Shown: positions 1,825 to 24,800 of the stretch, piece after piece | Position numbering within the stretch: the first letter of the stretch is position 1 | Layout of the letters: the number at the start of each line of letters is the position of its first letter | Assembly (NCBI GenBank): GCA_040755095.1 | Contig: JBFMBH010000005.1 | Coordinates: forward strand, 479 to 64,478 | Direction of reading: 5' to 3' | From: Thermodesulfobacteriota bacterium | Lineage (GTDB): Bacteria > Desulfobacterota > Desulfobulbia > Desulfobulbales > JBFMBH01 | Length of the DNA: 64,000 bases | The notes under the pieces: generated by a model | Database searches by the model: none | The model's input: the letters and a program-made list of their open reading frames with translations, nothing else | What the model was told of the DNA's origin: nothing | Made by a program: the position numbers and the translations under genes

Positions 1825-2577
1825 ATGGCTGCCCTTGCCTGCCGTTTCCTGGGGGACCTGCCCACCCTCCTCACCGTGCCCCATGACCGCGGCCTGGTCA
1901 GCCGGCCGCTGGGCCGGCGGACCTCGGTCAAGGACCTCATCGAGGCCTACGGCGTGCCGCACACCGAGGTGGCGGCCCTGACCATCAATGGCCAGGAAAG
2001 CGGGTTTGCGGCCCTCCTCCGGGATGGCGATGCGGTGATGGTGGCGCCGGTGCAAAGCCCGGACGATTTCTTCCGGCCCGGCTGCCTGCGGCCGGCCCTG
2101 GCCGCCAAGCCCGGTTTTCTGGTGGATATCAACGTCGGCCAGCTGGCCCGCCAGCTGCGGCTTCTGGGCCTGGACGCCCTCTATGACCCCCGGGCCGGCG
2201 ACGAGGAGCTGGCGGCCCAGGCGGCGGCCAGCGGCCGGGTGCTTTTGACCCGGGACCGGCGGCTCCTGAAGCGAAAGGGGGTGGTCTTCGGCCGCCTCAT
2301 CCGGGCCGGCGCACCGGAAGAGCAGCTCCTGGAGGTGGTGCGGCTCTTTGGCCTTGAGGAGCACTTCCAGCCCCTCAGCCGCTGCCTGCGCTGCAACGCC
2401 CTCCTGCAGCCGGTGGCCAAGGAGGCGATCGAGCACCGCCTCCTGCCCCTCACCCGCCTCTATTACCACAGCTTTCGTCGCTGCCCCGCCTGCGACCGCC
2501 TCTACTGGGCCGGCTCCCATCAGGAGGGGATGCGCCGCTTCCTGGCGGGTCTGCAAGGCCGGTTGGCTCGGCCTTGA
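1825..2577 (+). CDS. Ubiquitin-like (beta-grasp) + Mut7-C/PIN-like RNase domain protein with C-terminal zinc ribbon
   Basis: N-terminal ThiS/MoaD-like segment (SVKDLIEAYGVPHTEV...INGQ...DGDAVMVAP). Then FLVDINVGQLARQLRLLGLDALY...VLLTRDRRLLKR and CLRCN...CPACDRLYWAGSH, typical of Mut7-C (DUF82) proteins. Confidence 0.7.
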   Translation: MAALACRFLGDLPTLLTVPHDRGLVSRPLGRRTSVKDLIEAYGVPHTEVAALTINGQESGFAALLRDGDAVMVAPVQSPDDFFRPGCLRPALAAKPGFLVDINVGQLARQLRLLGLDALYDPRAGDEELAAQAAASGRVLLTRDRRLLKRKGVVFGRLIRAGAPEEQLLEVVRLFGLEEHFQPLSRCLRCNALLQPVAKEAIEHRLLPLTRLYYHSFRRCPACDRLYWAGSHQEGMRRFLAGLQGRLARP

Positions 2578-2649
2578 CTTCCTCCTCTGGCCCGGGCATG
2601 ATGCGAACCTGTAGGAATTTGACCATTCTTGGCAGGGAGGATGGCGACC

Positions 2650-3624
2650 ATGGGCAACGGGGTGTTTTCTCTTGTGGTGGCGGCGGTGGCAGGCGTCCTG
2701 GCCGTGGCCGGCTGCGAGCACCGGCCTGCGGTCAAGCCGAAGAAGGTGGGCATTGTCAACCCCAGCGCCGGCCTGGAGCAGGTGGTGGCAGGATTCAAGG
2801 CCGGCCTGGCCGAGCGGGGCCACCAGGAGGGCGAGACCATCGTCTTCCGCTATGACGGTCCCCTCCAGGGCTCAGGCGAGGTCGACAGCAGGATCGCCGC
2901 CCTCATCGCCGAGGATGTCGACCTTATCCTCGGCCTCACCACGCCGGTGGCCAGGAGGCTCAAGGAGGCTCTGACCGGGACGGCCATCCCCGGGCTCTTT
3001 GCCCCGGTCTTCGCGCCAGCGGAGGCCGGGCTGGTGGAAAGCCTGGCCCGGCCCGGCGGGCCTGTAACCGGGATCAGGATCCGGGGCAGCACGGCCAAGG
3101 CCCTGGAGTATCTCCTGGCCGTGGTGCCGGGGGTCAGGCGGGTGTACGTCCCCTGTCATGCCGGGGACATGGCCTCGTGTCTGACCCGGGACGATCTTGA
3201 GGCCGGCGCCGTGAAGCTGGGCGTTGAGCTGGTCTCGACCGAGGTGGACGGTCTGCCCGCCCTGCAGGCGGCCCTGGCCGCCATCCCCCCGGACGTGCAG
3301 GCGGTCTGGCTGACCTGCTCGCACCTTCTGACCTCCCAGGTGCGGGAGTATGTGGTGGCCGCCACGGCCCGGGGTATCCCGGTGGCCTCCTGCGCCCATC
3401 TCTTCTCCGGCAGCGGCGTCATGATCTCCTATGGCGAGAACGACTTCCGGATGGGGGAGCAGGCCGGCCGGATGGCAGACCGGCTTCTGAACGGCGCCTC
3501 CCCGCAGACCATGCCGGTGGAGACCGCCTCGTTCTATCTGCGGATCAACCGCGGCAAGGCCCGGGAGCTGGGCATCGAGGTGCCGGAGCGGCTCTTGCAG
3601 CAGGCAACGTTCATCGAGGACTGA
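2650..3624 (+). CDS. Lipoprotein, ABC-transporter-type substrate-binding protein (ABC_sub_bind/PF04392-like), copy 1
   Basis: Lipobox LAVAGC. Shares the KKVGIVN...GF..GL.E.G..EG....Y pattern with copies at 6611 and 20878. GGAGG lies 9 nt before ATG 2650; alternative starts are TTG 2629 and ATG 2641. No permease or ATPase gene is adjacent. Confidence 0.75.
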   Translation: MGNGVFSLVVAAVAGVLAVAGCEHRPAVKPKKVGIVNPSAGLEQVVAGFKAGLAERGHQEGETIVFRYDGPLQGSGEVDSRIAALIAEDVDLILGLTTPVARRLKEALTGTAIPGLFAPVFAPAEAGLVESLARPGGPVTGIRIRGSTAKALEYLLAVVPGVRRVYVPCHAGDMASCLTRDDLEAGAVKLGVELVSTEVDGLPALQAALAAIPPDVQAVWLTCSHLLTSQVREYVVAATARGIPVASCAHLFSGSGVMISYGENDFRMGEQAGRMADRLLNGASPQTMPVETASFYLRINRGKARELGIEVPERLLQQATFIED

Positions 3625-6455
3625 TGCCCGAGCCCTTCCCTCCCATGCCGCCGGCGGCGCCCGGCGGCGGTGCCCAGGCACCGGCAGGACGGCCAGGTCG
3701 CGGCCTGCGCCAGCGGTTCGCCGTGGCCGTCTGTCTGGTGGTCATTGTGCCTCTGATCCTCCTGGGGCTGACCTTGTCGGTTCTGGTCTACAGCTCCCAG
3801 AGGGAGCAGATCCTGGACCTGGAGCGGGAGGTGGTGAAGAGGGCGAGGAACGAGATTGCCCTGGCCACCCACGAGTTGGAGAGCATGCTCCACGTCGCCA
3901 TGCTCACGGGCGAGATCCTGGACCTGGGCCCGGCCGACCGCGAAAACCTCCTGCAGCAGCTCATCTTTGTCGAGAACGCCGGCGGGCAGGAGATCATCGA
4001 GGAGCTGCTCCTGGTCGACCGGAGCGGCCAGGAGCGGGCCCATGTCTCCCGGGTCGATATCTTCACCAGCGCCGACCGCCGGGACTGGGCCGGCAGGGCC
4101 GAGATCCAAGAGCCCCTGGCCACCGGCAAGCACGCCTACGGTCCGGTGGTCGTGGACGAGGAGAACCTGGAGCCCTGGATCCTGCACTCCATGCCCATCA
4201 CCAACTACCCGGGCGGCCCGGTGCAAGGGGTGCTCCTGGCCAAGCTTCGCATCAGCGCCATCTGGCGGCCGGTGGTGGACCGGCCGTTCGGCGAGCGGGG
4301 CCTCCTTTTCATCACCGATGCCACCGGCCGGGTCGTCGCCCACCCCAACATCTCCGCGACGCTCAGCAGCACCTTTTTCCTGCCGGGCATCGATGAGGGC
4401 CGCGGTCACGGACTGGAGGGGGAGGATCTGCTCCTGGTCCGGGAGCACTTCGATCTGCACCAGCAGCGCTTCTTCCTGGTCGCCACCACCCCCCACAGCG
4501 AGGTGCTCCACACGGCCTGGCACTCGCTGGGCACCACCGGCGTCTTTGTGCTGGTCTTTCTGGTCGCCGGCACCGCTCTGGGCCTGGCGGTGATCGGCCG
4601 GCTGGTCGGTCCCATCGAGAACCTGGCCCAGCGGGCCCGGCAGATCGGGGCCGGCGATCTGGGCGTCCGGGCGCCGCTGGTCGGCAGCGACGAGCTGGGC
4701 GACCTGGCGGCCAGCTTCAACGCCATGACCGACGAACTGGTGGCGAAGATTGACCTCCTGGCCACCCGGGAGGCGGCCATCCAGGACAGCTACCAGGTGC
4801 AGGCCCTGCTCAACCGCCTTCTGGAGCTCTCGTTGACCGGTCAGGGCCTGGACGAGATCCTGCGCCGGTTCATCGAGACCGTGACCTCGTTCCACGTCTT
4901 CGGTCTCGAGCACACCGGTGTGGTTTTCCTGCGGGAGGGCGATGTTCTCAAGATGAAGGCGGCCAGCAACCTGGCAGAGCCGTTGCGGGCGCTTTGCGCC
5001 GAGGTGGCTCTGGGACAGTGCTGTTGCGGCAAGACGGCCTTGAGCCGGGAGGTGCTGTTCGCGGACCGGGTTGATGAGCGTCACGACATCACCTATCCCG
5101 GGATGCCGCCCCATGGCCACTACTGCGTGCCGATCGTCACCGAGGGCAGCGAGGTGCTCGGCGTCTTCACCTGCTACACCAAGGCCGGCTACCGCCGCTC
5201 CGACAAGCTGGAGGCCGCTCTCAAGGCAGCCGGCAGCCTGGCGGCCCGGATCATCCGCGCCAAGCTGGCCGAAGAGGAGCAGGACAAGCTCCGGGCCCAG
5301 CTGCGGCAATCCCAGAAACTGGAGGCGATCGGCACCCTGGCCGGCGGCATCGCCCATGATTTCAACAACATCCTCTGCCCGATCGTCGCCTACAGCGAGC
5401 TGGGCCTGGCCGAGGTGCCCAGGGACAGCAAGGTCCACGGCTACCTGGCCGGCATCGGCCAGGCAGCCCGGCGAGCCAGCCAGCTGGTCCAGCAGATCCT
5501 GTCCTTCAGCCGCCGGAACAGCCAGGAGGTGGCGCCGGTGGAGCTGCAGGTGGTGATCAAGGAGGCCTTGAAGCTCCTGCGGGCCTCGATCCCCACCTTC
5601 ATCCAGATCCGGACCAACATCGATCCCCGGTGCGGGCCGGTGCTGGCCAACCCGGTGCAGATCCACCAGGTGCTCATGAATCTGTGCACCAACGCCTACC
5701 ATGCCATGCGCACCAGCGGCGGCACGCTGGGCGTCACCCTGCTGCCGGTCCGGATCAGCGCCGGCGACAAGGTCAAGGGCCTGCACCTGGCCCCCGGACC
5801 CTATCTGCGCCTGGAGGTGAGCGACACCGGCTCGGGCATGGAGCGGGCGGTTCTGGAGCGGATCTTCGAGCCCTATTTCACCACCAAGGAGAAGGGCGAG
5901 GGTACGGGTCTGGGCCTGGCGGTGGTGCATGGGATCATGCAGAGCCTGGGTGGACACGTCACCGTGTACAGCGAGGTCGGCCAGGGCACCACCTTTCACC
6001 TCTACTTCCCGGAGAGGCCAGCCACCTCTGCGGCCGCGGCGATCGACTCGGAGGCCCCCCTGCCGAAGGGCAGCGAGCGGCTGCTGTTTGTGGATGACGA
6101 GGCCGTCATTGTGGACATGGCCCGGCAGGTCCTGGCCGAGCTGGGGTACCAGGTGACGGCCTTCACCGATCCCCAGGAGGCTCTGGCCAGCTTCCAGGCG
6201 GCTCCGGATGGCTTCGATCTGCTGATGACCGACATGACGATGCCCAAGCTCACCGGCGACCGGTTGGCCCATGAGGCGAGGGCCTTGCGACCTGGGCTCC
6301 CGGTGGTGCTGTGCACGGGCTTCAGCGAGATCCTCAACGAGGAGAGCGCCAAGGCAGCCGGCATCGATGAATACGTGACCAAGCCGATGGGGATCCGGAC
6401 CATCGCCACCGTGGTCCGGCGGGCCCTGGACCGGGCCGCGGCCCGGCGGCCGTAG
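3624..6455 (+). CDS. Hybrid sensor histidine kinase (TM - Cache-like periplasmic domain - TM - HAMP - GAF - HisKA - HATPase - receiver)
   Basis: H-box LAGGIAHDFNNIL; G-boxes DTGSGM and GTGLGLAVVHGI; receiver LLFVDDE...LLMTDMTMPKLTG. Its ATG overlaps the stop of the upstream SBP gene (cTGATGc at 3622-3626). Confidence 0.9.
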   Translation: MPEPFPPMPPAAPGGGAQAPAGRPGRGLRQRFAVAVCLVVIVPLILLGLTLSVLVYSSQREQILDLEREVVKRARNEIALATHELESMLHVAMLTGEILDLGPADRENLLQQLIFVENAGGQEIIEELLLVDRSGQERAHVSRVDIFTSADRRDWAGRAEIQEPLATGKHAYGPVVVDEENLEPWILHSMPITNYPGGPVQGVLLAKLRISAIWRPVVDRPFGERGLLFITDATGRVVAHPNISATLSSTFFLPGIDEGRGHGLEGEDLLLVREHFDLHQQRFFLVATTPHSEVLHTAWHSLGTTGVFVLVFLVAGTALGLAVIGRLVGPIENLAQRARQIGAGDLGVRAPLVGSDELGDLAASFNAMTDELVAKIDLLATREAAIQDSYQVQALLNRLLELSLTGQGLDEILRRFIETVTSFHVFGLEHTGVVFLREGDVLKMKAASNLAEPLRALCAEVALGQCCCGKTALSREVLFADRVDERHDITYPGMPPHGHYCVPIVTEGSEVLGVFTCYTKAGYRRSDKLEAALKAAGSLAARIIRAKLAEEEQDKLRAQLRQSQKLEAIGTLAGGIAHDFNNILCPIVAYSELGLAEVPRDSKVHGYLAGIGQAARRASQLVQQILSFSRRNSQEVAPVELQVVIKEALKLLRASIPTFIQIRTNIDPRCGPVLANPVQIHQVLMNLCTNAYHAMRTSGGTLGVTLLPVRISAGDKVKGLHLAPGPYLRLEVSDTGSGMERAVLERIFEPYFTTKEKGEGTGLGLAVVHGIMQSLGGHVTVYSEVGQGTTFHLYFPERPATSAAAAIDSEAPLPKGSERLLFVDDEAVIVDMARQVLAELGYQVTAFTDPQEALASFQAAPDGFDLLMTDMTMPKLTGDRLAHEARALRPGLPVVLCTGFSEILNEESAKAAGIDEYVTKPMGIRTIATVVRRALDRAAARRP

Positions 6456-6610
6456 CGCCCGACGCTGCTCCGACCTTCCTGTACGCCCGCGGCTGCACCG
6501 GGCGGGTGCCCCTGTTCGTCGCGGAACGTGAAGGCGCTTGACATGAAGGGCACTTTTTGGGAAGGTGACCGTACAGTCGGGCGTAACCCCAGCCCCAGGA
6601 GGGAGGTGTC

Positions 6611-7585
6611 ATGCGTGTGCAGCTCGGCAGTCCCCTGGTTGTCCTGGCCCTCTTCTGGCTGCCTTTGCTCGGCGGATGCTCGACCGAAGAGCCCGAATCC
6701 CGGATGAAGATCATCGGCGTGCTCAACGCCAACGACAAGCACCTGCCCATGGTGGCCGGCTTCAAGGCCGGCCTGGCGGATCTGGGCTACCAGGAAGGGG
6801 AGAGCATCGTCTATCTGGAGGCCGGGCGGGTCTGCTCGGAAGGGGAGCTGGGGGCGGCAATGGGGGATCTGCTCCGCCGGCGGGTGGATCTGGTGCTGGC
6901 CCTGTCCACCAAAGCGGCGCAGGCTGCGGTGGCGGCGACCGCCGGCACGGCCGTCCCGGTGATCTTTGCCGGGGTCGTCGATCCGCTCGGGTCCGGTCTG
7001 GCCACCAGTATGCGGGCGCCGGATCGGAACGCCACCGGCGTCCGGGCCAGCCCTGGCACCGGCAAGGCCCTGGAGTGGCTGCTCCGCATCCGGCCCGGGG
7101 TGAAGAGGATCCTGGTCCCCTTTGCTGACGACAGTCCCCCGGCGGCCCAAAGCCTGGCCGCCCTCCGCGAGGCGGCGGAGAAGCTTCAGGTGGAGCTGGT
7201 CGTGCCTACCGTCGCCTCGTTGCCGGAGCTGGAGCAGGCTCTGGCCTCGCCGCCCAATGGGGTGGACGGGCTGTTCCTGCTGAGCTCGGCGCTGCTCGCC
7301 CGGCACATGGACCGGTTCGTGGCCGCCGCCATCCGGCACCAGCTGCCGTTGGCCTCGGCCATCGGCCATGAGAACGGGGTGCCGGTCACGGTCGGCCAGG
7401 ACCGCTTCCAGGTGGGGCGCCAGGCGAGTCGTCAGGCCCATGCCGTCCTCCAGGGTACCCCCGCCTGGCGCATCCCCATCGAGCAGCCTGATGTGCTCCT
7501 GCAGCTCCACCTGCCCACTGCCGCTGCCAGCGGCCTGGCCATCCCCCCGGAAGTCCTGATCCTGGCCCAGGATGTCATCCGCTGA
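6611..7585 (+). CDS. Lipoprotein, ABC-transporter-type substrate-binding protein (PF04392-like), copy 2
   Basis: Lipobox LLGGC, GGAGGGAGG RBS, paralogous to 2650..3624 and 20878..21843. Confidence 0.8.
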   Translation: MRVQLGSPLVVLALFWLPLLGGCSTEEPESRMKIIGVLNANDKHLPMVAGFKAGLADLGYQEGESIVYLEAGRVCSEGELGAAMGDLLRRRVDLVLALSTKAAQAAVAATAGTAVPVIFAGVVDPLGSGLATSMRAPDRNATGVRASPGTGKALEWLLRIRPGVKRILVPFADDSPPAAQSLAALREAAEKLQVELVVPTVASLPELEQALASPPNGVDGLFLLSSALLARHMDRFVAAAIRHQLPLASAIGHENGVPVTVGQDRFQVGRQASRQAHAVLQGTPAWRIPIEQPDVLLQLHLPTAAASGLAIPPEVLILAQDVIR

Positions 7586-7609
7586 CCGGCTCCGGCAGGC
7601 GATCGGCGC

Positions 7610-10600
7610 TCAGGGCCGGTACTCGTCCGCCCCCATGTCGTAGTCATCGGTGCCATCACCCAGGCCGGCCACGTCGTACGGCCGGCCCTGGCCGTCGTAG
7701 TCGTCCGCCGGCGCGTTGGCGGTGCCCGCCACGTCGATGGCCCCGGAGGCGCCGAGGCAGCCGGCCACCGGGTCGTCGACGCCGCGGCAGATATGGAAGT
7801 TCCCGCCGGCGTTGGGATTGCCGGCCGTGGCGAACTGCAGGTCCACGAAGACCGGATCGAGGTCGATATTGCCGGTCTTGTCCACACAGGCCGTGCAGCC
7901 GCCGGCGATATCGGTGTAGGTGGTGGTGGGCGAGCCGTTGATCTGGTGGTTGGTGCCGCCGGCGGTATTGCCCCAGAAGATGGAGTTGCGGATGGTGCCG
8001 CCGCCTTGCCAGCCGCCGCCGTTCCTGGCAGCCCGGTTGCCGGCCACCGTCGAGCTGTACAGGCTCATGGTGCCGCTGGTATAGACGCCACCACCGTCGT
8101 TGTACGAGACCCCCTCGATGAGGTTGCCGGTGATCATGCTGTTGGTGACGGTGGCGGTGGCGGTATTGTAGATGCCGCCGCCGTAGGTCTTGGCCTTGTT
8201 GGCCCTGAGCCAGGCCTTGCTCACGCTGGCGGTGGCGTTGCCGGCGACGGTGAGGCCGCCGCCGTAGCCGTTGATCGCCTCGTTCTCCTGGATGGTGGTG
8301 CCGGTGATGTTGAGGACCAGGGCCGGACTGTTGGTGCCGCTCACCGCGGTGTGGATGCCGCCGCTGTTGCGGGCCGAGTTGTTGCTGATGGTGCCGCCGG
8401 TGATGTTGGCGGTCAGGGTCAGCCCGGCCACGTTGCTGGCGGCCAGGTACAGACCGCCGCCGTCGGAGCCGGCGGTGTTGGTGACGGTGTTGGTGTCGAT
8501 GGTGCAGTTGGTGAGCGAAAAGGTCAGGCTGGTGCCGGCCGAGAGGTAGATGCCGGCGCCCTGGGCGGAGGTGGAGTTGTTGGTGATCGCCGTGTTGGTC
8601 ACGGTAATGCTGCTGGTCATGGCGGTCAGGTGCATGCCCCCGCCCATGCCGGTGGAACTGGTGTTGGCGTTCAGCGTGGTATCGGAGACCGAGACGGTCC
8701 CGATGCCGTTGGCATAGATGCCCGGACCGTGGCGGGAGGAGTTGTGGCTGATCGAGGTGGGGCCGGTGATGGTGAGGGTGGTGGCAGCGCCGGTCAGATA
8801 CAGGCCGCCGCCTTCATAGTTGGTGGGGGTTGAATTGTACTCGATGGTGCTGCTGTTGATCACCAGAGGCGAATTGGCGCAGTAGATGCCGCCGGCATGC
8901 TGGCCCGCGGTGTTGTTGCTCACGGTGGTGCCGGTGATCGTGGTGGTGGAGCTGCGGTTGTTGAGATAGATTGCGCCGCCCATGAAGATGGTCTGGTTGG
9001 AGACCAGGCTGCTGTTGGTGATGGTCAGGGCGCCACCGGCATTGGCCGCGTAGACCCCGGAGCCGTAGCGGGAGGAGTTGGGGGCCACGGCGTCACCGAT
9101 GGTGCAGCTGTCGATGGTCGCTCCGCCGCCGTCGATGTGGATCCCGGCGCCCCCATTGTAGTTGTTGGCCGGCGTGTGGCCCTTGACGATGCAGTTCTTG
9201 ATCGTCGGCGCCGCGTTGTTGGAGATGAAGATGCCCCGGTCCTTCTCGGCGCCGGAGAACTGGTTGTCGATGGTGAAGCCGTCCACCACGGCGCTGGCTG
9301 TCTCGCCGTTGCTGAAGGTGAGCACCGGGTTGTTGCCGGCAGCGCCCTGGATGGTGGTATTGGCGGCGCCGTTCTCGGAATAGACGTAGACGTTCTTGCC
9401 GCCGAAGTTGACGTTCTCCGAGTAGGTGCCGTTCTTGACCAGGATGTAGGCGCCGCTCGGGGTGCTGCCGCTGCTGATCGCCCCCTGGATGGAGGTGTAG
9501 TCGCAGCCCGAGGCGCAGACCGTGATGGGGTTGACCACCGTCAAGGTGCCGCCCGGGTCGGCTGGCGTCCCGGTGGCCTCCGCCGCCTCCGTATCCTGGG
9601 CGTAGAAGCGGTACTTGAGGGTGCCGTCGCCGTTGTAGGCCACGGCCCGGCTGGCGGTGAAGAGCTTGCCGTCGGTGTAGGTGGTGTCGCCGGCGTCCAC
9701 CGCGGTCATGTCGTGCTTTTCGCCGGCCTCGTAGGCCAGGTTGTCGTTGGCATCGATCCACACCTGCACAGCGCTGGGGGCGTCGTTGTCTGTGTCGCTG
9801 TACGACACCCGGAAGACGAAGGTGTTGCCGCCAGGACCGGAATCCGGGGCGACGCCGTCGGCGGTGTAGCCGGCCTCGCCGGTCCAGGCCAGGGTGGGGG
9901 CGTTGTTGGGGGTGAAGGTCACGGTGACCGTGCTGTTGGCCGTGGGCGGGCCGGTGGCATCGGCCGTGCCGTCGTTGGCGAAGAAGCGGTAGGTGTAGAC
10001 GCCGTCACCGGTGTAGGCCAGGGGCTGGGTGGCGGCGTACCGCTTGCCGTCGGTCACGGTGGTATCGCCAGCATCCGTGGCGGTCAGGGCCATCTTCTCG
10101 CCCGGCTCGTAAGTGCTGTTGTCGTTGGCGTCCACCCAGACCTGGATCAGGGCCGGCAGGGTGTTGTCGGTATCGGTGTAGTCCACCCGGAACTGGAAGC
10201 TGCTGGCATCCGGACCGCTGTCCGGGTTGACGCCGTCGCTGGCATAGCCGGCCTCGCCGGTCCAGGCCAGGGTGGGGGCATTGTTGGTCACGGTCAGGGT
10301 CTGGTCGGCGGTGGGCAGCCCGGTGGCGTCGTCGCTGCCGTCGGAGGCGAAGAACCGGTACTTGAGGCTGCCGTCGCCGGCAAAGAGCACCGGGACCGCA
10401 GCGGCGTACCGTTTGCCGTCGCTGTACGTGGCGTCGCCGCCGTCCGTGGCGGTCAGGGCGTGCTTTTCGCCCGCCCCGTAAGTGTTGTTGTCATCGGCGT
10501 CCACCCAGACCTCGATGAAGGCCGGCGCCGTGTTGTCAGCATCGGTGTAGTCCACCCGGAAGGCAAAGCTGGTGCCGCCGATGGCGCTGTCCGGATGGAC

Positions 10601-13600
10601 GCCGTCGGCAACGTAATTGGCTTCGCCGGTCCAGGCCAGGGTGGGCGGGTTGTTGGTGACCGTGAGGCTGCCGCCAGCCACCGGCGCGCCGGTGGCCTCG
10701 AAGGTCCCGTCCTGGGCGGAGAAGCGGTACGGGATGCTGCCATCGCCCGCCATGCTCACCGCCAGGGTCAAGGTGTACCGCTTGCCGTCGGAATAGGTGG
10801 TGTCGCCGGCATCGGCGGCAGTCATGGCGTGCTTTTCGCTGGGGCCGTATGTCCCGTTGTCGTCGGCATCCACCCAGACCTCCATCGCCACCGGCGGGTC
10901 GTTGTCGGCATCGGTGTAGTCGACCCGGAAGACAAAGCCGGTGCCGCTGCCGCCGCTGTCCGGGCTGACGCCGTCGGCGGTGTAGCCGGCTTCGCCGGTC
11001 CAGGCCAGGCTGGGCGCGCTCACGGCCGAGCGGTACTCGTCGGCGCCGAGGTCATCCGCCGCCCCCTGGGGCCGGGCATCGCCGTCGAGATCCGTGGCCG
11101 GCGCGTAGGCGGCGTTGCCGTGGTCGACGGCCGCCGAGACGCTCTGGAGGTGGAAGTCGCCGGCCGCCGCATCCACGAACAGGGGGTCGCTGTCCGACAG
11201 ATAGCCCTCGACGGTGAGGGTGTAGGCGGCTCCGGTGTGGTCCAGGTACGGGCGGTTGGTGAAGATGCCGTCGTGGCCGCTGGCCAGGAGGGCGTCCTGG
11301 ATGGTGACCGAGCCGGCGTTGAAATGGACGACATGGCCGCCGCTGGTGGCGCTGTTGTCCCAGAGGATGCAGTTCCGGAAGACGCTGCTGGCGCCCTGGT
11401 TGTAGATGACGCCGCCGCTGCCGGCCGTAGCCTGGTTGCCGGCAAAGGTGGAGTTGACTGCGGTCAGGCTGCCGGTGTTGACGTAGGAAACGCCGCCCTG
11501 GGTGCCCCGGTTGTTGGCCACCAGGCAGCTCTCGAACAGGATGCTGGTGCCGGCGTTGGACGGGTAGACCACGCCACTGGTACCGCTGGCCGTATTGCCG
11601 GTGATGGTGCAACGGACGAAGCTGGCGCCGGAGCCGTTGGCATACACCGCACCACCGGCACCGGTCGCGGTGTTGTCCTTGAGGACGACATCGATGAAGT
11701 CCGCAGAGCCGTTCTGGGAGAAGACCGCACCACCGCCGCCACTGGCGGTGTTGTTGCGGATGGTGCAGTTGGTGAAGGAATGACCAGTGGCCGCATTGAA
11801 GAAGGCACCGGCGCCGTTGCCGGCGGTGTTGTTGTAGATCTCCGAATTGGTGATGGTGGCCACTGCCGCGATGTTGGCGGTGTAGATGCCGCCGCCGTTG
11901 GCGCCCGGGTTGTTGTTGCTGTGGATCTTGCAGTTGTTCACCGTGGCGGTGGCGGAGTTGAAGTAGACACCGATGGTGCCGCCGGTGACGGTGAAGCCGT
12001 CCAGCAGGTTGCCGGAGTTGCTCAAGAACAGCACCACGGTGCCCGGGTTGCTGATCGTGGTCACCTCGGGGCCGCAGACCGAGCGGACCGTGGTGTCGGC
12101 ATCATTGACTCCGGAGAAGGACAGGTTCTCGTTGTAGGTCCCGTCGTAGACCAGGACCGTGTGGGCGCCGTCGACGGCATCGATCGCCCCCTGGATGGTG
12201 GCATACCAGCCTACGCCGCCGCCCGGCCGCACCTTTTGGGCATTGACCACGGTCAGGGTGCTGCCGGTGACCGGCGTGCCGATGGCCGGGTCTGTGCCGT
12301 CCGAGGCGGCGAAGCGGTACGCGAGGACATTGTCGCCGGCCAGGGCCAGGGACATGGTCTTCTTGTACAGCTTGCCATCGGCGCAATTGGCGTCACCGGG
12401 ATCGTCGGCACTGAGATTGTACTTCTCGCCCGGCTCGTAGGCGCTGTTGTCGTTGACATCCACCCAGACCTGGATGTCGCTGGCCGCTGGCGGGCACTGA
12501 TTCTCGGGGTCGGTATAGCGGACGAAAAACTCGAAGTCGGCGCCCGTGGCGCCTGCCGCGGGCTTCACCCCTTCGGCCCGGCAGGTGGCCGCCACCCACT
12601 CCAGAAGCGGTGGGCTGTTGGCCCCGGCCACCACGCTGAAGGTGCTGTCCGCGGCCGGCAGCCCGGTGGCGGCGCTGCTGCCGTCGCTGGCATAGAAGCG
12701 GTAGCCAAGAGTGCCGTCGCCGGCAAAGGCTACCGCCCTGGTGGTGGCGTAGAGCTTGCCGTCGGCATAATTGGTGTCGCCGCCGTCCATCGCGGTCAGG
12801 TCGTGCTTCTCTCCAGCCTCGTACGAGCCGTTGTCGTTGGCGTCGATCCAGACCTGGATGCTCGCCGGCGCCTGGTTGTCGGCATCGGTGTAGCTGACCC
12901 GGAAGGTGAAGCTGGCGCCGTTACCGCCGGTATTGGGGCTGACGCCGTCGTCGGTGAAGGATGCCTCGCCGGTCCAGGCCAGGGTCGGGCCGTTGTTGAG
13001 GATGGTCACGGAGCCATCGCCAGTGGGGGCACCGGTGGCGCTGTTGCTGCCGTCCGAGGCGGTGAAGCGGTAGCGGATGATGTTGTCGCCGGCACTGGTC
13101 AGGGTGAGGCTCTTGGTATAGATCTTGCCGTTCATGACATTGACGTCGCCGGCATCGACCCCGGTCATGGCGTGCTTTTCGCCCGCCTCGTAGGAGCCGT
13201 TGTCGTTGGCATCCACCCAGACCTCGACGAAGCTGGGCGGCTCATTGTTGAAGTCTGTGTATTCCACCCGGAAGGTGAAGGTGGAGGAGGAAGGACCGCT
13301 GTCCGGGCTGGCGCCATCGGCGGTGTAGCCGGTCTCGCCGGTCCAGGAGAGGAAGGGGGCCTGATCCGTGCTCTGGTATGGATTCCGGTCCTTGCCCTCC
13401 AGGTTGTTGTTGCCATGGCAGCCGACACAGATATTGGTCACCGAGTGGTTGATCCAGGCGGTGCCGTCGCTGGCCGCCAGGGGCACATCGGCGGGATCGG
13501 GCGGAACGGGAGCGCCCAGGATGGTGGTGATGGCGTTCTTGTACCAGATCTCCAGGCCCGGCTCGCGGCCGGTGAGCTTGCCGTCCCGGACCATGGCCAA

Positions 13601-15412
13601 CCGCGTGGAGCCATGGACGTTATGACAGTTGGGACAGGTCATCAGGCTGGTGTTGCCGCCGCTCCAGTCCGCCGGATACTGGTAGTTGTTGATCACCATG
13701 TGGTACTCGTGGCGGTTGACGCCAGCGGTGACTAGGTTGGTGCTCATGTTGCTGGAGCTGAGGAACGGGCCCGAGTCGTGGCAGTTGTAGCACAGTCGGG
13801 ACTGGTTGATCAGGTTGCCGGAGTTGGGGGGCCGCGGGACCAGCATGGGCTCCCGGGTGCTGGTGCCGGTGCCCTGGCCCATGCCCACCAGCTTCAGCCG
13901 GAACCCCTCCCGGTAGACGCTGGGGTCGGTGGTCGCCGATTCACCGTCGTCAAAGGTCCTGGGGTCCGCGTCGATGTTGTGGTCGCTGGCGTAATCGTGG
14001 CAGGAGTCGCAGTGCACCGGCCGTCCGGCCAGGGTCTGGATTCCCCCTTTCGAGGGGTAGTTTTCGCCGGCCACCAGGCCGTGGCCGGTCTTGTAGTAGC
14101 CCCAGCCGGTGCCGTAGGTGTAGCTGCCGTCCTCGTCGCCCACCACGTTGGGGGCGCTCACGCCATAGATCTCGGAAGGCTCCTTGTCATGGCAGGTGGC
14201 GCACCACTTCTCCTTGCCCGACCGCAAGGTGCTGTTGTTGGTGGCCAGATAGACGCCGGCATCCCAGTTGGCCTTGGCGCCGAGGATCGGATCGTCGACC
14301 CCGTCGTAATCGCCGCCCGGAGAGTGGCAGGGGTTGCAGACCGTGGTGGCGGCCAGGGTGGTGGCGCTGTCCTTGAAGTTGGGGAAGGCGTTGGTGTCGT
14401 GGCAGCCGTCGCAGCCGATGTTCGGGCCTTTGGCGTCGTCGGTGTCGTTCTCGGTGTGGGTGGAGTGGCTGGCAAAGGTGCCGGCGCCACCCGTGGCGCC
14501 GCCGTAGCCCAGGTCGTGGCCGTGGCAGTCCGGGCAGGTGCCGCCCCCGACGCCGCTGCCGTGGGCAAAGCCGTTGTCGTGGCTGTGGCAGGGGATGCAG
14601 TACGCGCCGGCCTGGCCGCCGCGCACGTTGGTGTGCAACTGGTCCGGGGCCGAGCCGTCGTTGCGGAAATGCCGGGGCAGGGTGTGGCAGACCTCGCAGA
14701 CCCCGTCGTAGACGGCATTGCCATCGGCGTAGGAGTTGGCGCCCTCCTTGCGGAAGAACTTCACGGTCTTCGTGCCGCTGTTGGGGGTGGGCAGGCTGGA
14801 CTTCACCAGCTTGCCGTAGAAGATGGCAAAGGTGTTGCCGGCACTGGCCTTGCCGAGCTCCATGGCCGGATCCACGGTCAGGGTCTCGGCGGAGTTGCCG
14901 GTGATCCGGTAGTTGTACGAGATCTGGCTGGTGTTGGGCATGAGGATGTAGCCCACCAGCGCATCCGGCTCCCAGCCGGCGCCGTCCATGGTCAGGGTGG
15001 TGGCGGTCAGTCCGGTGGAGGTCCCGGTGGCCACGTAGCTGGCGGCACCGTATGTGCGCATCTGCATCTGGTGGTGGGGCCAGTGGCAGGTCCGGCATTC
15101 GATGGACCAGGTGCCACGCTGGCTGTTGGTGGTCCGGCTGGAGTGGGGCACCACGTAGGGGGCCCGCACGTCGTTGTGGCAGCTCCAGCACAGGTTGTTG
15201 AACGGCGTGTCGTCGATGTTCTGAGGCTCATGATCCACCCAGGCAGGGTGCTGATCCTCGACGATGTAGTGGCAGGAGTCGCAGCCGATGGTCTCCTGCG
15301 CATAGTGGGGATAGTCGACCCCCAACTGGTCCGCCCGCACCGTCCGAACCCAGCCCCCGGCCAGCACCAGCACGGTGGTCACGGCCAACGCTGTCATCAT
15401 CCTGATCTTCAT
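7610..15412 (-). CDS. Giant secreted multidomain protein (~2,600 aa): 13-haem cytochrome c module + 7 tandem ~124-aa repeats + 2 right-handed parallel beta-helix blocks
   Basis: Signal peptide MKIRMMTALAVTTVLVLAGGWVRTVRA; RBS GAGAGGG before ATG 15412. Thirteen CxxCH motifs between about 13417 and 15283. Repeats start with LAWTGE.GY..DGV.PD. PbH1-like N-x-[ST]-x-x-x-N-x-A-x-x-GG-[AG]-[IV]-[YF] rungs. Both helix blocks end in D.DG..RP......D[LM]GADEY. Confidence 0.9.
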   Translation of the reverse strand: MKIRMMTALAVTTVLVLAGGWVRTVRADQLGVDYPHYAQETIGCDSCHYIVEDQHPAWVDHEPQNIDDTPFNNLCWSCHNDVRAPYVVPHSSRTTNSQRGTWSIECRTCHWPHHQMQMRTYGAASYVATGTSTGLTATTLTMDGAGWEPDALVGYILMPNTSQISYNYRITGNSAETLTVDPAMELGKASAGNTFAIFYGKLVKSSLPTPNSGTKTVKFFRKEGANSYADGNAVYDGVCEVCHTLPRHFRNDGSAPDQLHTNVRGGQAGAYCIPCHSHDNGFAHGSGVGGGTCPDCHGHDLGYGGATGGAGTFASHSTHTENDTDDAKGPNIGCDGCHDTNAFPNFKDSATTLAATTVCNPCHSPGGDYDGVDDPILGAKANWDAGVYLATNNSTLRSGKEKWCATCHDKEPSEIYGVSAPNVVGDEDGSYTYGTGWGYYKTGHGLVAGENYPSKGGIQTLAGRPVHCDSCHDYASDHNIDADPRTFDDGESATTDPSVYREGFRLKLVGMGQGTGTSTREPMLVPRPPNSGNLINQSRLCYNCHDSGPFLSSSNMSTNLVTAGVNRHEYHMVINNYQYPADWSGGNTSLMTCPNCHNVHGSTRLAMVRDGKLTGREPGLEIWYKNAITTILGAPVPPDPADVPLAASDGTAWINHSVTNICVGCHGNNNLEGKDRNPYQSTDQAPFLSWTGETGYTADGASPDSGPSSSTFTFRVEYTDFNNEPPSFVEVWVDANDNGSYEAGEKHAMTGVDAGDVNVMNGKIYTKSLTLTSAGDNIIRYRFTASDGSNSATGAPTGDGSVTILNNGPTLAWTGEASFTDDGVSPNTGGNGASFTFRVSYTDADNQAPASIQVWIDANDNGSYEAGEKHDLTAMDGGDTNYADGKLYATTRAVAFAGDGTLGYRFYASDGSSAATGLPAADSTFSVVAGANSPPLLEWVAATCRAEGVKPAAGATGADFEFFVRYTDPENQCPPAASDIQVWVDVNDNSAYEPGEKYNLSADDPGDANCADGKLYKKTMSLALAGDNVLAYRFAASDGTDPAIGTPVTGSTLTVVNAQKVRPGGGVGWYATIQGAIDAVDGAHTVLVYDGTYNENLSFSGVNDADTTVRSVCGPEVTTISNPGTVVLFLSNSGNLLDGFTVTGGTIGVYFNSATATVNNCKIHSNNNPGANGGGIYTANIAAVATITNSEIYNNTAGNGAGAFFNAATGHSFTNCTIRNNTASGGGGAVFSQNGSADFIDVVLKDNTATGAGGAVYANGSGASFVRCTITGNTASGTSGVVYPSNAGTSILFESCLVANNRGTQGGVSYVNTGSLTAVNSTFAGNQATAGSGGVIYNQGASSVFRNCILWDNSATSGGHVVHFNAGSVTIQDALLASGHDGIFTNRPYLDHTGAAYTLTVEGYLSDSDPLFVDAAAGDFHLQSVSAAVDHGNAAYAPATDLDGDARPQGAADDLGADEYRSAVSAPSLAWTGEAGYTADGVSPDSGGSGTGFVFRVDYTDADNDPPVAMEVWVDADDNGTYGPSEKHAMTAADAGDTTYSDGKRYTLTLAVSMAGDGSIPYRFSAQDGTFEATGAPVAGGSLTVTNNPPTLAWTGEANYVADGVHPDSAIGGTSFAFRVDYTDADNTAPAFIEVWVDADDNNTYGAGEKHALTATDGGDATYSDGKRYAAAVPVLFAGDGSLKYRFFASDGSDDATGLPTADQTLTVTNNAPTLAWTGEAGYASDGVNPDSGPDASSFQFRVDYTDTDNTLPALIQVWVDANDNSTYEPGEKMALTATDAGDTTVTDGKRYAATQPLAYTGDGVYTYRFFANDGTADATGPPTANSTVTVTFTPNNAPTLAWTGEAGYTADGVAPDSGPGGNTFVFRVSYSDTDNDAPSAVQVWIDANDNLAYEAGEKHDMTAVDAGDTTYTDGKLFTASRAVAYNGDGTLKYRFYAQDTEAAEATGTPADPGGTLTVVNPITVCASGCDYTSIQGAISSGSTPSGAYILVKNGTYSENVNFGGKNVYVYSENGAANTTIQGAAGNNPVLTFSNGETASAVVDGFTIDNQFSGAEKDRGIFISNNAAPTIKNCIVKGHTPANNYNGGAGIHIDGGGATIDSCTIGDAVAPNSSRYGSGVYAANAGGALTITNSSLVSNQTIFMGGAIYLNNRSSTTTITGTTVSNNTAGQHAGGIYCANSPLVINSSTIEYNSTPTNYEGGGLYLTGAATTLTITGPTSISHNSSRHGPGIYANGIGTVSVSDTTLNANTSSTGMGGGMHLTAMTSSITVTNTAITNNSTSAQGAGIYLSAGTSLTFSLTNCTIDTNTVTNTAGSDGGGLYLAASNVAGLTLTANITGGTISNNSARNSGGIHTAVSGTNSPALVLNITGTTIQENEAINGYGGGLTVAGNATASVSKAWLRANKAKTYGGGIYNTATATVTNSMITGNLIEGVSYNDGGGVYTSGTMSLYSSTVAGNRAARNGGGWQGGGTIRNSIFWGNTAGGTNHQINGSPTTTYTDIAGGCTACVDKTGNIDLDPVFVDLQFATAGNPNAGGNFHICRGVDDPVAGCLGASGAIDVAGTANAPADDYDGQGRPYDVAGLGDGTDDYDMGADEYRP
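9530..11008 (-). repeat. Intragenic tandem repeat block B: 4 copies of the same ~124-aa domain
   Basis: The DNA string ctcgccggtccaggccagg (antisense of LAWTGE) recurs near 9885, 10255, 10625 and 10995, and also at 12970. Copies are more alike than those in block A. Confidence 0.85.
12242..13357 (-). repeat. Intragenic tandem repeat block A: 3 copies of a ~124-aa (about 370-bp) domain
   Basis: Protein consensus [LF][AS]WTGE.GYT.DG.SP..G....F.FRV.YTD.DN..P..++VW+D.NDNG.YE.GEKH.+T..D.GD.....GK.Y.......AGD....YRF.ASDGS..ATG.P. The third copy (LLEWVAATCRAEGVKP...) is diverged. Confidence 0.85.
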
Positions 15413-15476
15413 GCCGCCCTCTCTTTGCGATCCTGCGTTGCCAGTCAACCCGCGCACGGCCAACGTGCCTGCGGCC

Positions 15477-17876: not shown

Positions 17877-17934
17877 GATTGCAGACCTCGCCTCGGAATG
17901 GTCGGCCTCTGGAGGTCGGGGAGCCCAGGGGGCC

Positions 17935-19798: not shown

Positions 19799-19841
19799 GG
19801 CTGGCTCTCCTCCTGTCCGGCTGCCGTCCCGTACAAAACGA

Positions 19842-20877: not shown

Positions 20878-21843
20878 GTGCGCAGCACCCGAGGGCTGAG
20901 CCTGGTGCTCGGCCTGGCCATGCTGGTGGGATGCGGGATGGGGCCGGAAGAGAAGCCCGTCCCGGTGGTGGGCATCGTCAATGCGAACCCCGCCATGGGC
21001 AAGGCGGTGGCGGGCTTCCGGGAGGAGTTCGGCCGGGAGCAGCCCGGGGCCGGCCGGGGGGTGCGCTTTGTCGATCCTGGACAGCTGGCGGGCCCTGAAC
21101 AGGTGGACGCCGCCCTTCGGGAGATGGTGGCAGGCAAGGTGGACCTGGTGTTCGTCACCTCCACGCCTACGGCTCTTCAGGCCAAGGAGGTCCTGGCCGG
21201 GCGGGACGTACCGGTGGTCTTCGCGCCGGTATTCAACGTCCTGGCTTCCGGGCTAATGGAGAACCCGATGCGGCCCGGTGGCTTCATGACCGGGATCCAG
21301 GGCGGTGGGCATGCAGGCAAGGCCCTGGAGTGGCATCTGCGGGCAGTGCCCCACGCGCGCCGCCTGCTGGTTCCTCTCTTGCCTGCCGACCCCAGTGCCC
21401 AGCAGTGTCTGGCCGAGCTCCAGGACGCCGCCTTTCCCTTGGGCGTGGAGCTGCTCGTCCGGGAGATCCAGGACGAGACCCAGCTGCGGTCGGTTTCGGA
21501 CGGCCTCCCCGGGGACATCGATGCCTTGTGGCTTCTGAACTCACCCAAGCTGATTCGCCTGGTCAAGCTGTTCACCGAGGTGGCCATCGCGCAAGGCTGG
21601 GTGCTCTCCTCCGCCACCTCCCAGGTCGAGGGCGGGGTCATGGTGTCCTTTGGCCAGGATCTGACCGAGACGGGCCGGCGGGCCGGCCGCCTGGCCAGGC
21701 GCATCCTGGAGGGCGTGCCGCCCGCGCAGATCCCGGTGGAGCCCGCCGAGTACCGCTTGGGCATCAACCTGGGCACCGCCAGGGCCGCCGGGGTGACCAT
21801 TGCGGACGAGGTCCTGCGCCAGGCCGACATCATCGTGCAATGA
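20878..21843 (+). CDS. Lipoprotein, ABC-transporter-type substrate-binding protein (PF04392-like), copy 3
   Basis: GTG 20878 after GGAAGGAGGG; lipobox AMLVGC; paralogous to the copies at 2650 and 6611. Confidence 0.8.
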   Translation: MRSTRGLSLVLGLAMLVGCGMGPEEKPVPVVGIVNANPAMGKAVAGFREEFGREQPGAGRGVRFVDPGQLAGPEQVDAALREMVAGKVDLVFVTSTPTALQAKEVLAGRDVPVVFAPVFNVLASGLMENPMRPGGFMTGIQGGGHAGKALEWHLRAVPHARRLLVPLLPADPSAQQCLAELQDAAFPLGVELLVREIQDETQLRSVSDGLPGDIDALWLLNSPKLIRLVKLFTEVAIAQGWVLSSATSQVEGGVMVSFGQDLTETGRRAGRLARRILEGVPPAQIPVEPAEYRLGINLGTARAAGVTIADEVLRQADIIVQ

Positions 21844-21859
21844 ACGAGGACCTGCTGCT

Positions 21860-24800
21860 GTGACCGGCCGGTCATCGTCCCGGAGCCTCCGGCGCCAGTT
21901 GACGGGAGCCTTCCTGCTGCTGAGCCTGGGGCCGTTGCACATCCTGGGCGTTGTCTTCCTGTGGCAGAGCTGGTCCCTGCAGTTGGAGCAGGCTGTGCGC
22001 CTGCAGATGGAGATCTCGGAGCGGGTGGCGGCGACCATCGTCAGCTATTTCGAGCGCCTCGAGGATCACCTCCTGACGGTGCTGGGCACGGAGCGTCTGG
22101 TCTCCCTGAGCCTCGACCAGCAGCGTTGGCTCCTGGAGCACGCGCGCTCCCATCGCATGAGCTCGACCGACCACCCCCAGGAAGCATTCCAGGAGCTGGC
22201 GCTTCTCGACAGCCGTGGCGTAGAGCGGGCGCGGGTATCCCGGACTGCGGTGGTCACCGGCCCTGACCTGCGGGATCGCTCCCAGGATGACGCATTTGTC
22301 GTGCCCATGATCAGCTCTGCGACGTATTTCGGACCGGTCCATTTCCACGCGGACCTGGGGGAGCCGACCATGACCATGGCGGTCCCGATTCAGGATCTGG
22401 TGCAGGACCGCCGCCGCGGGGTGCTGGCAGCAGAGATTCGCCTGCGGGAGCTGTGGGGGCTCATCACCCAGCTGCGGATCGGGGACAAGGGAGAGGCGTA
22501 TCTCGTCGACGCGAGCGGCGCGGTGGTGGCCCATCGGGATCCATCCGTGGTGCTGCGCGGCACCCGGACCATGCTGCCGGAGCGGCAGGGGCTCCGGCAG
22601 GGCCTGTCCGGCAGGTGGGTGGTGTCCGCTTCTCGGCCGGTGGCGCTGGGCGGCCAACGCCTCGTCATTGTGACGGAAAGGCCCCTCCTGGAGGCCGTGG
22701 GCTTCACCCTCTTTCTTTCCCTGACCATCACCCTGTGTGTGGCCCTGGCGGTGGGCCTGGTGGCGACCCTGGCCATCCTGGTGCGGCGGCGGATCGTGGC
22801 GCCCATCGAGCTTCTGGCCAGAGTTTCCCAGGCCATCAGCAGCGGCGATTTGTCGCGGCGGGTGGAATTCGCCAGCGACAACGAGCTGGGACTCCTGGCC
22901 GACAGCTTCAACCGCATGGCGGCCCGCCTGACTGGGACCATCAGCGCGCTGGAGGCGGGGATCGTCGCCCGGGAAGAGGCCAATGCTGAGCTGGCAGCGG
23001 AGATGGAGCGTCGCCATCAGGCGGAGCGCCAGTGGCAGGAGAGCGAGGCCCGCATGGCCGCCATCGTGCGAGCCTTTGACGGTTTCCTCTATCTGGTCGA
23101 TGCCAGGGGGCGGATCCAATTCATGAACCAGCGCCTCATCGAGCACCTGGGGCGTGACGCCACCGGCGAGCAGTGCTTCGAGGCCCTCCATGATGTCGTT
23201 CCCCCATGCCCCTGGTGCGTGCGGGATGCCGGGGTGGTCCGGGAGACGCTGCGCGTCGAGGGGCGCGCCCCCAGGAACGGCCGCTGGTACTACGCGGTGA
23301 GCACGCCGGTGCAGCACGCTGACGGTTCGTTCTCGCAGCAGATCATGCTCCTCGACATCACCGACCGGAAGCTGGCGGAGCAGCGGCTGGTAGAGGCCCA
23401 CGAGCGGCTGCTGACCGTCTTCGACAGCCTGGATGCGGCGGTCTATGTTGCCGACATGACCACCTACGAGCTGCTGGTGGTGAACCGCAAGGTCAGGGAA
23501 GCCTTCGGCGAGGTGGAGGGACGACTGTGCTACGCGGCCCTGCAGGAGGGGCAGACCGGTCCCTGCTCCTTCTGCACGAACGATCGGCTCCTGGACGAAG
23601 CCGGCTGGCCCACCGGGGTCTGCCAGTGGGAGACCAGGAACCCGGTCACCGGTCGCTGGTACGACCTGCGGGATCAGGCCATTCCCTGGCTGGATGGCCG
23701 CATGGTACGCATGGAGATCGCCACCGATATTACCGAGCGCAAGCTCATGGAGGAGAGCTTGGCTGCCGAGAAGGAGAGGCTGGCGGTGACCCTGGCGGCC
23801 ATTGCCGAAGGGGTGCTGGCCACCGATACTGGCGGTCGGGTCGTGCTCATGAACCGGGTGGCCGCGGAGCTGACCGGCTGGGATCCGGTCGAGGCCATGA
23901 CCAGGACGGTGGCCGAAGTGCTGCCGCTGCTGGATGAGGCCTCCCGTGGGCCCCTGCCCATCGCCGAGCCGCAGGCAGCGGACACCGGCCACAGCGAAGG
24001 GCGGTTTCAGGAGGCGCTGCTACGCTGCCGCAGCGGCCAGGAACGGCCGATCGCCGTGGCGGCGACGCCCATTTTTGACCAGAGCCAGATCCGACTGGGC
24101 GCGGTGTGGGTCTTCCGGGACGTTACCGAAGAGCGACGCCTGGCCCGCCAGCTGCTGGAGGTGGAGCGGCTCCGCTCTCTGGGCACCCTGGCAGCCGGGG
24201 TGGCCCACGAGATCAACAACCCCCTGGCCAGTGCCTCCCTCAATCTCCAGGTTCTGCTCCAGAGGCTGGAGTCCCGCTCGGAGGAGGACCGGCAGGCCTG
24301 TCTGCCCAAGCTGCTGTCGGCGGAGCGCAACATCGAGCGGGCCTCCACCATCGCCCGGGAGCTTCTCCAGTTCTCCCGCCCCGACCGCCCCGGCTGCAGC
24401 ACCCAGCCCCTCGGACTTTGCGAGGTTCTCTCCCACAGTCTGGCCCTCATCGAGGACCGTCTGGGGGGCGTGGTGGTCGATCTGCGGTGCGAAGGCCTCC
24501 CGGAGGTGCCAGGCGATCCCTCGCGGCTGCAACAGGTGTTCACCAATCTGCTGATCAACGCCGTCGAGGCAATGCCCGCCGGCGGCCGGGTCAGTATCAC
24601 GGGCCAGTGCCTGGGCGACCAGGTCGAGATCGCCATCAGCGACGAGGGCGCAGGTATTCCGCCCGCACAGCTCGGCCGGATCATGGATCCGTTCTTCACC
24701 ACCAAGGAGCCCGGCAAGGGCACTGGTCTCGGGCTTTTCGTCTCCTACTGGATCGTCCGGCAGCACGGTGGGATGCTGCGGCTGGAGAACAGACCGGGCG

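Follow-up and report, generated by a model that had tools for sequence, protein, structure and literature searches.

PF04392 substrate-binding lipoproteins paired with dCache sensor kinases as probable co-receptors in a Thermodesulfobacteriota bacterium

A stretch of 64,000 nucleotides (nt) from contig JBFMBH010000005.1 of a Thermodesulfobacteriota bacterium, hereafter the window, carries three genes for lipoproteins of the substrate-binding protein (SBP) family PF04392 (SBP1, SBP2 and SBP3) together with two genes for sensor histidine kinases (HK1 and HK2). SBP1, SBP3 and, as seems likely, SBP2 are probably membrane-anchored periplasmic ligand-binding co-receptors rather than components of a transporter, because they are paired with sensor kinases instead of a transporter and because the same pairing is found in many bacteria and some archaea. 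An original prediction, made from the DNA letters, had read SBP1, HK1 and SBP2 (module 1) as an SBP-dependent sensing module. This reading is supported by the conserved pairing, by the correlated divergence of SBPs and sensors, by the loss of transporter-type contacts and by the dCache fold predicted for HK1, all four being comparative lines of evidence.

That two PF04392 lipoproteins flank a hybrid kinase, as had been predicted, is upheld by Pfam scores and lipoboxes (Table 1; lipoprotein calls were made from the sequence pattern of a hydrophobic N-terminus and a lipobox Cys). SBP1 scores 144.8 bits against PF04392, for which the gathering score of 25.9 bits was used as the cut-off, and matches the solved structure 3LKV with E = 8e-27. 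Its open reading frame (ORF) extends from 2629 to 3624, the best start is the ATG at 2650, located 9 nt past AGGGAGG at 2634-2640, and the signal peptide closes with the lipobox VAG/C. A protein from a Thermodesulfobacteriota metagenome-assembled genome (MAG) at NCBI is 100% identical to SBP1. The TGA of SBP1 (3622-3624) and the ATG of HK1 (3624-3626) have one A in common, and direct reading of the sequence thus agrees with the TGATG overlap claimed for the two genes. As the G+C content of the window is ~68%, codon-position GC served to tell real genes from spurious ORFs. Among the ORFs of the 64-kb window that are supported by GC at the third codon position, none encodes an ABC permease or ATPase, and no PF02653 permease with an ABC ATPase adjoins the window SBPs there. 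The earlier statement that such genes are absent therefore holds for the window, and "orphan" is to be understood at that scope and not at that of the genome.

HK1 has the order transmembrane segment, dCache, transmembrane segment, HAMP, GAF, HisKA, HATPase, REC, and its HAMP, GAF, HisKA, HATPase_c and REC domains all exceed the Pfam cut-offs. As expected of a hybrid histidine kinase, one polypeptide contains the H-box His (HDFNN at 578), the N and G boxes (G-boxes DTGSGM at 734 and GTGLGL at 760) and the receiver Asp (TDMTMP at 869). As expected of a sensor, an extracytoplasmic domain of ~245 periplasmic residues lies between two transmembrane helices (near residues 33-55 and 303-325). The dCache_1 match of this domain, at 35.5 bits, is under the cut-off of 45 bits. 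An AlphaFold2 (AF2) model of the domain (pLDDT 72.8), built on a 3-sequence alignment and of moderate confidence, was compared with known structures by Foldseek, and the best matches in the Protein Data Bank are the dCache ligand-binding domains of PctC, PctA and Mlp24 (E about 1e-10, TM-score 0.64-0.71). On the basis of this model, the periplasmic domain of HK1 is predicted to fold as a dCache. A homologue search with residues 1-385 of HK1 gave one weak match only, within the word-index limits of that search.

Related loci were fetched with motifs from the SBP1 subfamily among one-genome-per-species contigs, and ~10 to 12 kb of DNA was retrieved around each. An alignment of the three window SBPs with distant relatives (A1) was too divergent for locus retrieval and was replaced by a subfamily alignment (A2), in which 67 columns in all are invariant among 7 sequences. 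SBP1 has distinct relatives at 42-52% identity, after which identity falls to about 33%. In three of these relatives (P0013, P0002 and P0003), a dCache_1-HAMP kinase gene is located directly downstream, within a few nucleotides, and in a fourth (P0016) a dCache-HAMP-GAF protein is encoded immediately upstream. The other neighbors at these four loci are unrelated to one another, and ABC genes are absent. P0014 is an exception, with a glycosyltransferase-like gene and then a receiver domain downstream.

The 78 loci retrieved span many phyla (Nitrospirota, Desulfobacterota, Chloroflexota, Vibrio, Shewanella, Colwellia, the Candidate Phyla Radiation (CPR), Omnitrophota and Nitrosopumilus archaea). 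The next gene downstream of the SBP encodes a HAMP domain in 51/74 loci, a dCache_1 domain in 32/74 and a second PF04392 protein in 4/74, and the median gap from the SBP stop to the transducer start is 7 nt (42 loci). An ABC ATPase and permease are present in 4/78 loci only (L056, L063, L080 and L081). As controls, a Corynebacterium PF04392 gene is located in a canonical SBP-permease-ATPase operon, and another PF04392 relative is a true orphan with neither ABC nor kinase neighbors. The pairing seen in the window is of the kind expected for SBP-dependent sensor kinases, i.e., co-oriented, adjacent (the TGATG overlap in module 1, and a gap of 16 nt from the SBP3 stop to the HK2 start) and conserved among relatives. 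Among 14 SBP-sensor pairs, SBP identity is correlated with identity of the sensor periplasmic domain (r = 0.86, partly phylogenetic). Each window module falls into a different old lineage, and both lineages are likewise present together in one Nitrospirae MAG.

The PF04392 proteins with solved structures have Trp, Phe or Tyr as ligands (PMC10443332, PMC6816091), and five contacts are common to the transporter-type proteins TrpX, CD0873 and VC_1101, namely T108, A127, T129, D152 and N233 in TrpX numbering (PMC9382623, PMC6816091). At the aligned columns, SBP1 has T/P/F/I/H, SBP2 has T/G/V/A/A and SBP3 has T/P/F/G/P; the Thr alone is kept, and 4/5 contacts are replaced in all three. Because the Asp and Asn of all transporter-type proteins are gone, the window SBPs are unlikely to bind an aromatic amino acid in the known manner. 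TrpX/SP1069 (3LFT), VC_1101 (3LKV) and CD0873 (6HNI) resemble the window SBPs in Pfam family and fold (E = 1e-20 to 1e-27), and CD0873 is likewise a lipoprotein (PMC6816091). However, the literature presents TrpX and CD0873 as components of ABC importers (PMC9382623, PMC6816091), whereas the window SBPs adjoin kinases. The TrpX model NF041285, the only model that NCBIfam offers, gives 123.3 bits for SBP1, 92.5 for SBP2 and 61.7 for SBP3 against a cut-off of 390. Among ~130 single-domain relatives, the pocket columns are highly variable, which fits a family with diversified specificities.

A second, much broader clade of kinase-linked PF04392 proteins (loci L025-L086) was also observed. It extends from Vibrio to archaea and CPR, usually with a HAMP transducer next; examples are L073 in Vibrio europaeus (5875-9963), L084 in Shewanella, and L030, L039, L061 and L075 in Nitrosopumilales. 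The pocket of this clade is almost invariant, with T-I/V-T-Y-N-D-T-N-F at the 3LFT contact columns, a signature that suggests one universal ligand.

SBP3 and HK2, together with an adjacent response regulator, form a second module (20878-25496). The sensor and HAMP regions of HK1 and HK2 are 31% identical (E = 8e-33), SBP1, SBP2 and SBP3 are about 35% identical to one another, and HK2 has a dCache_1 match of 59.8 bits. All three SBP genes of the window are next to kinases that share one architecture. Module 2 is located upstream of a minus-strand cytochrome cluster and is divergent from it. The predicted paralogous module at the other end of the cytochrome operon was therefore found, with the correction that PilZ and TPR ORFs (19394-20560, minus strand) separate the first cytochrome gene from SBP3. 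The TPR/YfiO-like ORF (19842-20560, minus strand) heads the minus-strand cluster, leaving ~300 nt of divergent intergenic DNA to SBP3, and a sigma-70-like site, TTGCCA-17-TATTCT, was observed between the two at 20766-20794 on the plus strand.

SBP2 is a divergent PF04392 lipoprotein. It is 35% identical to SBP1, has its own ribosome-binding site (RBS) AGGAGGGAGG after a 155-nt gap, and is without a close relative, the best match being 37% identical. A sigma-54 promoter upstream, sought by eye, was not convincing. The nearest relative of SBP2 overlaps a HAMP-PAS-GGDEF gene by 1 nt; other near relatives belong to a seven-gene PF04392 array with a Cache fragment, and one is beside a cyclase. SBP2 may provide HK1 with a second input. 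Among the relatives, arrangements with several SBPs to one sensor are repeatedly seen, as tandem SBPs (L010 and L011), as the array (L089) and as fused proteins of 3-5 SBP domains. In the two Nitrospirae MAGs with tandem SBPs, two PF04392 genes are followed by a dCache kinase gene (L010, 5971-10503; L011, 5959-10492), a layout like that of two SBPs and one kinase in the window. Orthology of SBP2 with the second tandem SBP of these loci was considered and rejected, the two being 31-34% identical, no closer than SBP2 is to any other SBP. The array (L089, 1712-11305) consists of seven consecutive PF04392 SBP genes around a 175-aa Cache fragment. Proteins of 950-1530 aa with 3-5 tandem PF04392 domains (P0139, P0147, P0152, P0162, P0166, P0167 and others) are either multi-SBP fusions or gene-call fusions.

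Table 1. Coordinates of features in and around the two modules (aa, amino acids; positions are those of the window)
Feature	Position	Strand	Evidence or remark
Sigma-70-like promoter match, TTGACT-17-CATGAT	2574..2602	+	Consensus scan, upstream of SBP1; weak pattern match only
SBP1, PF04392 substrate-binding-protein-like lipoprotein	2650..3624	+	Pfam, RBS, lipobox
TGATG junction, 1-nt overlap of SBP1 stop and HK1 start	3622..3626	+	Read from sequence
HK1, hybrid sensor histidine kinase, 943 aa	3624..6455	+	Pfam domains, motifs, transmembrane segments
HK1 periplasmic dCache domain (predicted), residues ~56-300	3789..4523	+	dCache_1, AF2 model, Foldseek
HK1 HAMP	4590..4742	+	PF00672, 58.1 bits
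HK1 cytoplasmic GAF	4845..5255	+	GAF_2, 33.9 bits
HK1 HisKA and HATPase_c core	5331..6017	+	PF00512, 35.5 bits; PF02518, 84 bits
HK1 C-terminal receiver (REC)	6084..6416	+	PF00072, 67.8 bits
SBP2, divergent PF04392 lipoprotein	6611..7585	+	PF04392, 109.5 bits; lipobox LGG/C
Spacer between convergent stops, 24 nt	7586..7609	.	Read from sequence
Multihaem ORF, 2617 aa, 13 CXXCH motifs, convergent with module 1	7610..15463	-	Context
SBP3, PF04392 lipoprotein	20878..21843	+	93.6 bits; RBS GGAAGGAGGG; GTG 20878; lipobox LVG/C
HK2: dCache_1, HAMP, PAS, HisKA, HATPase; without REC	21860..24868	+	Pfam; GTG start 21860
Response regulator, REC and DUF7347/HTH	24843..25496	+	Pfam; ATG 24843; overlaps HK2 end by 26 nt

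Among known systems, LuxP/LuxQ and HptA/HptS are structurally characterized cases of an SBP binding to a dCache-like domain (PMC8050422). As in LuxP/LuxQ, a type-I SBP gene is located directly upstream of a hybrid kinase gene (HisKA-HATPase-REC), the periplasmic domain is dCache-like and of two modules, and there is no transporter (PMC8050422). The likeness has limits, as LuxP is a soluble protein of PF13407 whereas the window SBPs are lipid-anchored members of PF04392, and LuxQ has PF09308 and is without the HAMP-GAF relay of HK1. Against the LuxQ model NF041947, HK1 scores 82.7 bits (cut-off 1200), and the match covers the kinase core only (residues 660-924). The HK1 module is best regarded as an analogue and not an orthologue of LuxP/LuxQ, and would work most like that system. 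In HptA/HptS, the Staphylococcus glucose-6-phosphate sensor, and in BasB/BasT and CosB/CosT of Halobacterium, the SBP also docks on the dCache-like domain of the receptor and the genes are adjacent (PMC8050422), but the SBPs are of other families, none of them PF04392, and the outputs are chemoreceptors (BasT and CosT) or a non-hybrid kinase (HptS).

TorT/TorS is similar in that a transporter-independent SBP governs a hybrid kinase regulating a respiratory system. However, the sensor of TorS is a helical bundle and that of HK1 a predicted dCache, and HK1 scores 128.2 and 79.8 bits against the TorS models TIGR02956 and NF008543 (cut-offs 676.5 and 982). Of the two analogies drawn in the original prediction, LuxP/LuxQ fits in its architecture of type-I SBP, dCache-like domain and hybrid kinase, while TorT/TorS fails at the level of the sensor fold. 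In YfiR/YfiN (TpbB), a transmembrane signaling enzyme with a HAMP domain is under the control of a periplasmic protein that has a PF04392-like half-fold (PMC4655355); YfiR differs in being single-lobed (DUF4154), and the enzyme it controls is a diguanylate cyclase. By their model scores, pocket residues and predicted sensor fold, the window modules are not members of the LuxPQ, TorTS or TrpX families.

In the co-receptor model, the lipid-anchored SBP would capture a periplasmic small molecule other than an aromatic amino acid, and would bind to the dCache domain of its kinase. This docking would displace the transmembrane helices and the HAMP domain, with a resulting change in autokinase activity. 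In HK1, the signal would also pass through the cytoplasmic GAF domain and lead to phosphorylation of the kinase's own receiver domain, after which an Hpt protein or regulator from outside the window would be needed, whereas HK2 would phosphorylate the adjacent REC-HTH regulator. Candidate partners for the Hpt-less HK1, by presence in the window only, are an orphan REC-LuxR regulator (37245-37979, plus strand) and a further HATPase_c protein (62422-63927, plus strand). The GAF domain of HK1 has an unusual GQCCCG triple-cysteine motif (residues 466-471, 5019-5036) that does not occur in 12 related sensors. This motif may be a redox, metal or cofactor site, giving HK1 a second, cytoplasmic input.

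Several points weigh against this model. Physical contact between SBP and dCache domain, the ligand and the dependence of signaling on it, and the regulatory targets are what we infer by comparison alone. Shared phylogeny confounds the correlation of SBP and sensor divergence, which does not prove contact, and the HAMP proportion given above describes relatives of SBP1 and not PF04392 as a whole. The partner of SBP2 is uncertain, given its own expression signals and the lack of a close orthologue. The dCache domain of HK1 retains the R-x-W of ligand-binding dCache domains (recognized by eye) and could bind its own ligand, which might leave the SBP with no more than a modulating role; where an Asp is expected in the GV...D strand, HK1 has Lys and HK2 has Glu. 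Finally, ABC membrane components could be encoded at another site in the genome, and some PF04392 genes are indeed orphans. These last considerations, together with the standing of PF04392 as a transporter family, with canonical operons in Corynebacterium and at the four ABC-containing loci above, and the documented dual-function SBPs (PMC8050422, PMC9602780), would allow the SBPs to be genuine transport receptors for distant ABC components, with the kinase merely regulating uptake, or with the SBP doing both, as BctC, ChvE and MBP do. We consider this unlikely, however, in view of the tight pairing with transducers, the loss of pocket residues that are constant in transporter-type proteins, and the lack of an ABC gene both in the window and in the DNA retrieved around 74/78 related loci.

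It is also conceivable that the SBP-like lipoproteins act ligand-free, as kinase inhibitors or scaffolds, much as YfiR acts on YfiN, with the fold kept and small-molecule binding lost. The N-lobe of the PF04392 structures 3LFT and 3LKV is similar to YfiR (PMC4655355), the residues after the shared Thr at the pocket columns are small or atypical in SBP2 (G/V/A/A) and SBP3 (P/F/G/P), and these columns vary widely across the clade. However, both lobes and the hinge are kept at full length, and the closest relatives of SBP1 keep P, F, S and H at the pocket columns, positions whose conservation suggests selection on the binding site. Ligand-free action therefore seems quite improbable, and ligand-binding co-receptors are the explanation we prefer.

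The original prediction also placed module 1 against the operon of a giant cytochrome gene. The 24-nt spacing stands, with the SBP2 stop at 7583-7585 and the stop codon of the giant minus-strand ORF at 7610-7612. Module 1 is, however, convergent with that gene, so it adjoins the cluster and is not part of its operon. The two modules could be dedicated regulators of the multihaem cluster that they flank, coupling a periplasmic cue to extracellular electron-transfer genes, an idea that would add to the co-receptor model and not replace it. Consistent with this, one cytochrome cluster is flanked by two paralogous modules, of which module 2 diverges from the cluster and includes a DNA-binding regulator, and the window contains further multihaem clusters. 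On the other hand, only 1/78 SBP loci have a multihaem neighbor (at least 3 CXXCH), module 1 is convergent with the giant gene and has no DNA-binding output in the window, and the search from the cytochrome side was negative. In that search, homologs of the 6-haem protein (17938-19065) were found in 390 metagenome stretches confirmed by tblastn, and 79 loci at 39-60% identity were kept; a PF04392 gene is present in 0/35 of those that are at least 8 kb long. A conserved SBP-cytochrome link was thus rejected from both sides, and the tie implied by the original prediction comes down to proximity. The positional link is specific to this genome and would reflect either coincidence or real regulation; we regard dedicated regulation of the cluster as doubtful.

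SBP-dependent sensor kinases are a known kind of system, LuxP/LuxQ and HptA/HptS being examples, and what appears to be new here is the SBP family, which was not found named in the reviews searched. In those reviews, SBPs with signaling roles comprise 13 families and about ten SBP-kinase systems (PMC8050422, PMC9602780), and the main one does not use the term ABC_sub_bind. A literature search on PF04392, ABC_sub_bind, COG2984 and 3LKV/3LFT did not find a signaling role, and the characterized PF04392 ligands found in the literature are aromatic amino acids only. A profile search returned 3345 PF04392 cluster representatives at E <= 1e-30, which are sequence matches only. Should the pairing be functional, the annotations "ABC transporter substrate-binding protein" and "tryptophan/tyrosine transport" would be wrong for thousands of proteins that are in fact sensors. 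The SBP would then offer a soluble, screenable handle on the signals of otherwise intractable kinases, including those of organisms capable of extracellular electron transfer. For the window itself the value is modest, i.e., a plausible regulator whose connection to the cytochromes is positional only. The finding is ordinary in principle; its use as a lead comes from the wide occurrence of the pairing and from annotations that call the proteins generic ABC or tryptophan-tyrosine binding proteins.

At its broadest, and as a long shot, PF04392 lipoproteins and dCache-HAMP transducers might constitute a large, old and undescribed class of two-protein extracytoplasmic receptors in Bacteria and Archaea, with kinase and diguanylate-cyclase outputs and a possible adenylate/guanylate-cyclase neighbor. 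One clade would have a diversified pocket, and the second (Vibrio, Shewanella, Nitrosopumilus and CPR) would be frozen on one universal ligand. The window would then hold two such modules, one with two SBP inputs, gating an extracellular electron-transfer cluster by periplasmic metabolites.

Some further features of the window and of the related loci were observed. On the plus strand, SBP1 is preceded by WD40, PP2C and Mut7-C genes. An Rfam scan of the whole window for riboswitches and small RNAs near the modules or cytochromes gave one tRNA only (29125-29198). On a Desulfobulbaceae contig that carries an SBP1 orthologue, an SBP of another family, PF12974 (Phosphonate-bd), abuts a HAMP-PAS hybrid kinase (L001, 13610-17118, minus strand). 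The ORF listed at 506 aa for the 6-haem gene (17938-19065, minus strand) probably starts at the Met at 19065 (MHDGRIMALAMGMVLCWESTSHA), giving a 376-aa cytochrome with 6 CXXCH motifs. Directly upstream of this gene, on the same strand, the PilZ ORF (19394-19912; PF07238, 38 bits) has visible RxxxR and DxSxxG motifs, which hints at a c-di-GMP input to the cytochrome cluster. Two more multihaem clusters are present, one on the minus strand with 5, 5, 12 and 5 CXXCH motifs (38720-46834) and the other on the plus strand with 26 and 16 (54099-58206). Both are interleaved with NHL beta-propeller proteins, and the same NHL-cytochrome theme is seen at 7610-19065.

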